Source: a virus | Length of the DNA stretch: 64,000 nucleotides | Strand: one strand, 5' to 3' | UHGV virus genome: UHGV-0098755 | Shown: positions 50,609 to 51,847 of the stretch, in pieces | Layout of the letters: every line of letters begins with the position of its first letter | How positions within the stretch are numbered: position 1 is the stretch's first letter | Made by a program: the position numbers and the translations under genes | The notes under the pieces: generated by a model | The model's input: the letters and a program-made list of their open reading frames with translations, nothing else | Told to the model about the DNA's origin: nothing | Database searches by the model: none

Positions 50609-50617
50609 TTTATTCTC

Positions 50618-50672
50618 CTCAGTAGTTGATAGGGTAATAATATCACTACCCCATCTAAAAGTAAACGGTTTA
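50618..50672 (-). promoter_or_regulatory. T4-type early promoter
   Basis: GTTTAC...GTGATATTATTACC. Confidence 0.65.
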
Positions 50673-50676
50673 TAAA

Positions 50677-50985
50677 CTATTTTATTCCGCGTGATGCAAT
50701 TGTGTTCTGCCGTTTAACGCCAGTTTGTTTAAAGTCATGATTGTCAATTTGATCGGTACGAGCAACTCCGAATGATGATTTGATCTTAGCTTTAGATCCT
50801 TTAGTTATAGAAATAAACATCTCGGAAGCCCCTTTCTTAAAGTCCGAGGCGATTACTTCAACGCCGTTCTTAGCAAGTGACTTCAGAATTGCCTCTGCAT
50901 ACTCATCGTCAAGACTCGTCTGAGTATTAATAACGAATGTCTTTGGCGCAGCCGCTTCATTGATAAATTCTTTAAATGTTTTCAT
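50677..50985 (-). CDS. Internal-protein-like small protein with capsid targeting sequence
   Basis: 102-aa ORF beginning MKTFKEFINEA; own early promoter. Confidence 0.6.
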   Translation of the reverse strand: MKTFKEFINEAAAPKTFVINTQTSLDDEYAEAILKSLAKNGVEVIASDFKKGASEMFISITKGSKAKIKSSFGVARTDQIDNHDFKQTGVKRQNTIASRGIK

Positions 50986-51007
50986 TTTATTTTCCTAATT
51001 AATTTTT

Positions 51008-51052
51008 GATGAGATAATAGTATCACAACCCTATTTAAAAGTAAACTCATTT
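51008..51052 (-). promoter_or_regulatory. T4-type early promoter
   Basis: GTTTACTTTTAAATAGGGTTGTGATACTATTATC. Confidence 0.65.
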
Positions 51053-51319
51053 TAAATAAATTGCGTATTTTTTATAACCCGCTGACTCATGACGAAGACC
51101 CTTATCATTAGCAAAACGCTCAATGTTGTTAATTTGATTCTGGTCAAGTTCAGAGATGTCAAACACGAAAAAATTACGTTTGTTACCAACTGTTACATAG
51201 TCAGTTAAATCAATATCATATAGGTAATTGATGTCAGCAATCAAAGTCTTGACAGCTTTGCTAATTTTTACTTTTTCGTTAAAAGCAGCTTCAGCAATAA
51301 ATTCTTGATACGTTTTCAT
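51047..51319 (-). CDS. Internal-protein-like small protein with capsid targeting sequence (ipI slot)
   Basis: 90-aa ORF beginning MKTYQEFIAEA, adjacent to 57B; own early promoter. Confidence 0.65.
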   Translation of the reverse strand: MKTYQEFIAEAAFNEKVKISKAVKTLIADINYLYDIDLTDYVTVGNKRNFFVFDISELDQNQINNIERFANDKGLRHESAGYKKYAIYLK

Positions 51320-51344
51320 TTTATTTTCCTAATTAATTTTGATG

Positions 51345-51395
51345 AGGTAATAGTATCACTACTAAAACCCCATGTAAACAACTTTGTGAAATTAT
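51345..51395 (-). promoter_or_regulatory. T4-type early promoter
   Basis: GTTTACATGGGGTTTTAGTAGTGATACTATTACC with conserved upstream block. Confidence 0.65.
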
Positions 51396-51847
51396 TTTAA
51401 ATCATCCGCCCAATCAAGTTTAAGAGGCTCTTTATATTCACGATCTAATACGACCGGAATTTGTACATCACCGCTAAATGATAAGGGCCCAACATTATAA
51501 GACAATGTTATATGCGGTGTGTAATCATCAAAATCATGTGTAGCACCTAGTGCCCGCGCATACATGTGTCGACAGCGCAGATATTCAGAATCTAACACAA
51601 GTACAAGAGTCGATCCATCTTGTGTTTTCCATACTTCTAAATGTCCAGAAGAAGCTACTTCAAAACTTCCACTCGATGGAACATATGGAACATTTACTCT
51701 CGAATAACATATAGTCGAATGAATTTTTTCTCTAGGAACTGGATTAGGAACACGTAAAGAGCGCTGGAGTTCTTCCAGCGCGTCAAGTGTTAATTCTGAA
51801 AACTTAGCTGCTACATAAAGACCCGTTAAAAAGTCTTTAAATTCCAT
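51392..51847 (-). CDS. 57B: 2H-phosphoesterase gp57B (anti-CBASS protein Acb1 family)
   Basis: 151-aa ORF with two H-x-T/S motifs (HSTICYS, HITLSY); upstream of 57A as in T4. Confidence 0.8.

Follow-up and report, generated by a model that had tools for sequence, protein, structure and literature searches.

Internal-protein genes ip9 and ip7 as candidate capsid-targeted cassettes in the variable 57B–trna.4 slot of a T4-like phage

The 64,000-nucleotide stretch of UHGV virus genome UHGV-0098755 analysed in this study (the window) is understood, with a probability of about 90%, as DNA of a T4-like phage whose hypervariable slot, bounded by gene 57B and the trna.4 homologue, is occupied by two known internal-protein genes, ip9 and ip7, each gene forming a self-contained cassette whose product is predicted to be capsid-targeted and is proposed to be injected as anti-defence cargo. 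The genes, the leader, the promoter repeats and the hypothesis of shuffling are already known, having been published in 1994; in that study (Repoila), ip9 and ip7 were reportedly named in phage RB15 as genes of "internal proteins" that are packaged in the capsid and injected into the host. As a discovery, the locus carries little weight, the genes being routinely annotated in T4-like genomes. The whole window is a Tequatrovirus genome: along 20 kb it is ~96% identical to several phages of E. coli and Shigella. The segment 50400-51900 is represented to at least 80% in no fewer than 46 phage records, many of which label both genes 'internal head protein'.

Results

Two leader-bearing genes between 57B and trna.4

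The original prediction had proposed two leader-bearing open reading frames (ORFs) of 102 and 90 amino acids (aa) in the T4 ipI slot, and both are present on the minus strand, at 50677-50985 and 51047-51319. The ip9 gene (51047..51319, 90 aa) starts MKTYQEFIAEA (MKTYQEFIAEAAFNEKV), with the leader MKTYQEFIAE encoded at 51290-51319. Its product matches RB15 Ip9 (95.6% protein identity) and, from end to end, the 'internal head protein' family PHROG 7673 (residues 1-90, E 4e-55), and its homologues number 193 records. The ip7 gene (50677..50985, 102 aa) starts MKTFKEFINEA (MKTFKEFINEAAAPKTF), with the leader MKTFKEFINE encoded at 50956-50985; the protein is 99% identical to RB15 Ip7 and to the homologue of phage T2, matches another 'internal head protein' family, PHROG 2667, over its full length (residues 1-102, E 5e-41), and has homologues in 284 records, T2 among them.

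Both proteins thus carry the conserved N-terminal capsid-targeting leader of ~10-11 residues (MKTYQEFIAEA type), its first ten residues in these two conforming to MKT[Y/F][Q/K]EFI[A/N]E. At the level of the motif, the site of the prohead protease gp21 (L/I-x-E, then a small residue) is found at residues 8-11, as I-A-E↓A in Ip9 and I-N-E↓A in Ip7; in T4 IPII and IPIII, too, gp21 uses a site of the form I-x-E followed by Ala. The leader-coding pattern ATGAAAACNTWYMAAGAATTYATY occurs four times in the window, compared to 0.02 copies expected by chance: two of the copies are those of ip9 and ip7, and the other two, at 42631 and 42953, belong to a second internal-protein locus. Cut after Glu10, the predicted mature Ip9* would comprise 80 aa with an isoelectric point (pI) of ~8.2, and the predicted mature Ip7* 92 aa with a pI of ~9.65 (15 K+R vs 10 D+E).

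Beyond the leader, the two bodies are unrelated, as had been proposed. BLASTP aligns residues 1-12 only, the PHROG families are different, and the predicted topologies differ. The AlphaFold2 model of Ip9 has a predicted local distance difference test score (pLDDT) of 83. That of Ip7 shows a ferredoxin-like core (pLDDT 69 overall, ~80 for residues 12-70), followed by a basic C-terminal tail (residues 80-102) that is modelled at low confidence. Neither protein has a significant sequence match in Pfam, NCBIfam or the solved structures of the PDB.

The minus-strand order within 50400-51900 is 57B, a 72-bp gap, ip9, a 61-bp gap, ip7, a 68-bp gap and the trna.4 homologue. Two conserved anchors enclose the slot, both positioned as in T4: upstream, gene 57B (51392..51847, minus strand, 151 aa; PHROG 755, E 3e-67), and downstream, the trna.4 homologue (50423..50608, minus strand; PHROG 1692, E 5e-35), which is a hydrophobic protein of 61 aa without the leader. 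The T4 order is 57B - ipI - trna.4 - trna.3 - trna.2 - tRNAs, and the window is identical except that two genes replace ipI. The assignment to the ipI slot is thus borne out by synteny with T4, and ip9 and ip7 lie in a polymorphic internal-protein locus, of which there are two (this one, from 57B to trna.4, and another next to gene e).

A promoter repeat on both sides of each gene

A direct-repeat finder detected three copies of a unit of ~105 nt that comprises promoter, ribosome-binding site and first codons. All three copies share the hexamer GTTTAC, a spacing of 17-18 nt and an extended -10 element of the form TG-n-TA(C/T)TAT. Cassette 1 (57B to ip9; 51320..51391, minus strand) was identified by consensus scan (TTTACA, 17 nt, TACTAT with TG) and by alignment with the intergenic regions of T4 and RB15. 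Its -35 element GTTTAC lies at 51379-51374, 12 nt behind the 57B stop codon, the TG-extended -10 element TACTAT at 51355-51350, and the AGGA ribosome-binding site just ahead of the ATG. Both the spacer and the -10 element are overlapped by an inverted repeat, which is weak, and whose predicted hairpin (z -0.83) is no better than those of shuffled sequences.

Cassette 2 (ip9 to ip7; 50986..51046, minus strand) was recognised from alignments and repeat comparison. Its -35 element GTTTAC (51046-51041) abuts the ip9 stop codon and is followed by the TG-extended -10 element TACTAT (51022-51017) and an AGGA ribosome-binding site. By manual count it matches 8/12 consensus positions, below the 9/12 threshold of the scan, which therefore listed two of the three cassettes (1 and 3, both with TG-extended -10). 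No convincing hairpin was found in cassette 2, the inverted repeat being absent or marginal.

Cassette 3 (ip7 to trna.4; 50609..50676, minus strand) is a third copy on the downstream side of ip7, absent from the original prediction. It has its -35 element GTTTAC at 50666-50661, its TG-extended -10 element TATTAT at 50642-50637 and an inverted repeat of 9-10 bp (GATGGGGTAG/TTACCCTATC), and up to and including the -10 element and the CCCTATCA behind it, its sequence is the same as that found in RB15 downstream of ip7. Given that this copy of promoter and ribosome-binding site precedes the leaderless trna.4 homologue, both ip genes have a copy of the repeat on either side. A repeat of ~70 bp with a T4 early promoter is thus present to either side, with the overlapping inverted repeat weak in cassettes 1 and 3.

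The promoters ahead of ip9 and ip7 had been described as near-identical. This is borne out only in part: up to codon 12, the identity is 88% (68/77) when counted from the extended -10 element and 80% (78/97) when counted from the -35 element, the spacer between the hexamers differing considerably. Perfect copies of GTGATACTATTAYCTCATCAAAA, the motif that runs from the -10 element to the ribosome-binding site, are found only ahead of ip9 and ip7, compared to 0.00 copies expected. A match with two mismatches to this cassette motif (-10 element plus the sequence ahead of the ribosome-binding site) was noted at 31177-31199 on the minus strand, far from both internal-protein loci.

Variation of the slot among related phages

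The slot was surveyed in 38 loci, of which 36 were fetched from IMG/VR via the 57B gene, with RB15 and the window added. ORFs downstream of 57B were collected when they started MK-x-[F/Y]-x-[E/D]-[F/Y] with an aliphatic residue, T or A in the next position, and their bodies were clustered after removal of the first 11 residues. The 51 leader-bearing ORFs so obtained fall into 15 mutually unrelated body families, the two commonest cargoes being those of Ip9 (11 loci) and Ip7 (9 loci); several of the surveyed loci have no leader-bearing ORF in the slot. The order ip9-then-ip7 is shared by the window, RB15 and the surveyed loci L030 and L023, and it is reversed in L013, where an ip7-like gene precedes an ip9-like one. 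T4 has ipI only, RB15 has ip5-ip9-ip7-ip8, G4498 has ip9-ip7 together with the gene of a 74-aa 'internal virion protein', and the window and the Pu-Krd-SF phages have ip9-ip7.

Modular shuffling of cargo behind a shared promoter and leader, as envisaged by the original prediction, is supported by these 15 unrelated cargo families across the 38 loci. The segment from the -10 element to the ATG ahead of ip9 reads ATTAATTAGGAAAAT in the window and ACTACTGAGGAGAAT in RB15, and each of the two can be seen again in further cassettes of these loci; such exchange of one variant for the other is the pattern expected from crossovers inside the repeat. The prediction had also allowed that both proteins might turn out identical to well-characterised IPI variants. 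They are essentially identical to named variants, but these are not IPI alleles and are functionally uncharacterised.

Two records from the comparison are mentioned on their own account. The 'ip7 protein' of the Mosigvirus OLB35 (L044:660-1010, MH992122; 77 aa) combines a fragment of the Ip7 body with the last ~35 residues of Ip9, with a trna.4-like start ahead. Considered as a functional Ip7/Ip9 hybrid, it was rejected: it lacks the leader, begins with GTG behind the trna.4-like fragment and comes from a record marked UNVERIFIED. In appearance it is the decayed scar of a recombination event in this same slot. The protein P0015, from a metagenomic contig of 6.8 kb, has the Ip9 body behind the Ip7-type leader MKTFKEFINEA, a combination that would point to a crossover within the sequence encoding the leader, but it shows several odd substitutions and may be low-quality sequence.

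The Ip9 body without the leader

The Ip9 body was searched against a representative library of 1.84 billion proteins and then by profile, and the resulting family comprises members of three types. The first are proteins of T4-like phages with the variant leaders MKFNEFLTEA, MKSFKEYLTES and MKTFKEFVQGS. The second are siphovirus proteins of 72-74 aa that start exactly at the beginning of the Ip9 domain, without leader and linker, and whose matches to PHROG 7673 begin no earlier than profile position 19 or 20. In the Kagunavirus JSSK01 (L004:2507-2725), a divergent intergenic region is followed by small hypothetical genes that run rightward, the homologue being the first of them, and in the Seuratvirus SHIN8 (L006:2492-2716) it stands amid similar small hypothetical genes. 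Both are probably early regions, and the 'internal head protein' label of the SHIN8 protein was probably carried over from the annotation of the T4-like family. In the third type, the domain is placed near the C-terminus of a Kuttervirus protein of 755-861 aa, adjoining genes annotated as putative structural proteins. The 755-aa representative of Kuttervirus aagejoakim (L005:467-2734) has an N-terminus (MAIPSFLNFLEES) that resembles the capsid-targeting leader.

The leaderless homologues are direct evidence that leader and cargo are separable modules. Their presence in early-looking regions of Kagunavirus and Seuratvirus lends support to the Ip9 cargo acting against the host from within its cytoplasm. 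We propose, tentatively and as something rather less than probable, that residues ~19-90 constitute a portable anti-host domain distributed across unrelated phage groups, which T4-like phages came to pre-load into the virion for injection, simply by fusing the 10-residue leader to what had been an ordinary early protein. If this was true, the leaderless homologues would offer an easy, packaging-independent route to the target of Ip9. No description of the leaderless occurrence was found in the literature searched, which excluded Comeau et al. 2007 and the 1994 paper, and the Ip9 body without leader outside the T4-like phages may be a new observation.

These findings bear on the alternative that Ip7 and Ip9 are mainly of structural or physico-chemical importance, binding or neutralising the packaged DNA and aiding its condensation or ejection, rather than inhibiting a defence. 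The basic character of mature Ip7 (pI 9.65) with its low-confidence basic tail, the mildly basic mature Ip9 (pI 8.2) and the substantial part of the T4 head that internal proteins fill, according to PMC7697877, are all in its favour. However, the diversity of 15 unrelated cargo families, together with relatives having no leader-bearing ORFs at all, fits a dispensable cargo of an arms race better than a conserved structural role. The leaderless siphovirus domain sits among small hypothetical genes, away from annotated virion genes, and all three T4 internal proteins are specific inhibitors of GmrSD (PMC12373910). We consider the structural alternative unlikely.

Proposed mechanism and alternatives

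The proposed course of events would begin with the leader directing Ip7 and Ip9 into the scaffolding core of the prohead, as judged from the biology of T4 IPII and IPIII. There, gp21 would cut after Glu10 within the I-x-E↓A motif seen in both proteins, leaving Ip9* of ~80 aa and Ip7* of 92 aa inside the head. The mature proteins would then be injected with the DNA and might act before phage genes are expressed. By analogy, each could inhibit one particular nuclease variant among the host's defences, the most plausible target being a type IV restriction enzyme of the GmrSD family that attacks DNA containing glucosylated hydroxymethylcytosine (glucosyl-hmC). The repeats of ~70-100 bp flanking each gene would provide the homology for recombination, by which cassettes might be added, deleted, reordered and swapped between phages, and for this step there is comparative support. 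Recombination in the flanking repeats would account for the slot differing between close relatives.

Several points weigh against this proposal. Gene 21 is outside the window, and packaging and cleavage of Ip7 and Ip9 in this phage are predictions; the searchable literature yielded no experiments on either protein, virion or injection data included. The hairpins predicted in the cassettes have energies no better than those obtained after shuffling. The late-promoter consensus TATAAATA is absent directly upstream of ip9 and ip7, its nearest occurrence on the minus strand being at 52445-52452, inside gene 1. With only early-type promoters directly upstream, the sequence by itself does not account for enough protein being available when proheads assemble.

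This promoter arrangement is also what speaks for the leader being a relic, with Ip7 and Ip9 as ordinary early proteins of the cytoplasm that remain unpackaged. Against this, read-through from the late-promoter consensus at 52445-52452 is possible, and the leader pattern, admittedly itself the criterion by which the ORFs were selected, heads 15 otherwise unrelated bodies. A leader kept on so many unrelated bodies argues for selection on the leader itself, and we regard the relic explanation as highly improbable.

A more serious contender retains the injection of Ip7 and Ip9 as factors of anti-defence or host takeover, and assigns them targets other than nucleases of the GmrSD type, be it other defences or host housekeeping. 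No similarity in sequence or fold to IPI* or other known inhibitors was found for either protein, and the Ip9 cargo has homologues outside the T-even phages, in Kagunavirus, Seuratvirus and Kuttervirus, so that a nuclease target specific for glucosyl-hmC is not required. However, targets are known for just three internal proteins, each of which acts on a GmrSD variant, the diversity of GmrSD is very large (PMC12373910), and positive evidence for any non-GmrSD target is lacking. Other targets are therefore a real possibility, albeit one that we hold short of even odds.

Within the proposal of injected anti-defence cargo, Ip7 and Ip9 are the obvious next candidates for anti-restriction screens. 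They are the two commonest cargoes of the slot in this small survey, Ip7 is found in the classical phage T2 as well, and all three T4 internal proteins have recently been shown to be specific GmrSD inhibitors. The leaderless siphovirus homologues of Ip9 provide a convenient handle for such tests.

Other features of the window

The second internal-protein locus of the window (42076-43442, minus strand), with the lysozyme gene e (43424-43912) as its neighbour, contains an ipIII-like ORF of 192 aa (42076-42654), a leader-bearing ORF of 86 aa that starts MKMYQEFIVEA (42716-42976) and an ORF that resembles RB15 Ip5 in its body (43146-43442; 11-residue stretch from the sixth codon), all on the minus strand. 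Between the trna.2 homologue and the tRNA cluster, an ORF of 149 aa (49276-49725, minus strand; PHROG 2290) occupies a position where no T4 gene is annotated, and thus represents another presence/absence difference in the region.

Comparison with known systems

Phage RB15 offers the closest parallel, having the same genes in the same order and slot, the same flanking promoter repeats and protein identities of 95.6% (Ip9) and 99% (Ip7). At the DNA level, ~94% of the alignment columns match, gaps and flanks counted. RB15 differs in possessing ip5 upstream and ip8 downstream, neither of which is present in the window, and in having a different repeat variant as the segment from the -10 element to the ATG ahead of ip9.

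With T4 IPI (ipI; the GmrSD inhibitor IPI*), the window genes share the 57B-trna.4 slot, the type of promoter cassette and the N-terminal start MKTFKEF. T4 IPII and IPIII resemble Ip9 and Ip7 in the 10-residue leader (MKTYQEFIAE) and the I-x-E↓A site, and are distinguished by their locus next to the lysozyme gene e and by other cargo bodies. The inhibitors Ip1, Ip2 and Ip3 are directed at one GmrSD variant each, a different one in every case and without cross-protection, and it is the diversity of GmrSD that leads phages to collect many such internal proteins (PMC12373910). More than 30 internal-protein variants are known (PMC2839356).

Regarding the flanking repeats, there is an analogy to the promoter-early stem-loop (PeSL) cassettes of phages RB49 and phi1, in which a repeated promoter with stem-loop flanks small accessory genes and has been put forward as the means by which these are excised, inserted and shuffled (Arbiol et al. 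2010, PMC2839356). The elements of the T-even internal-protein loci are analogues of PeSLs rather than homologues, built on early promoters of T4 instead of sigma-70-like ones and having AT-rich stems that are weaker (PMC2839356). The weak folds of the cassettes in the window agree with this. According to the same source (PMC2839356), Repoila et al. found PeSL-like elements of promoter and stem-loop at both of the highly variable internal-protein loci, where they may be behind the plasticity.
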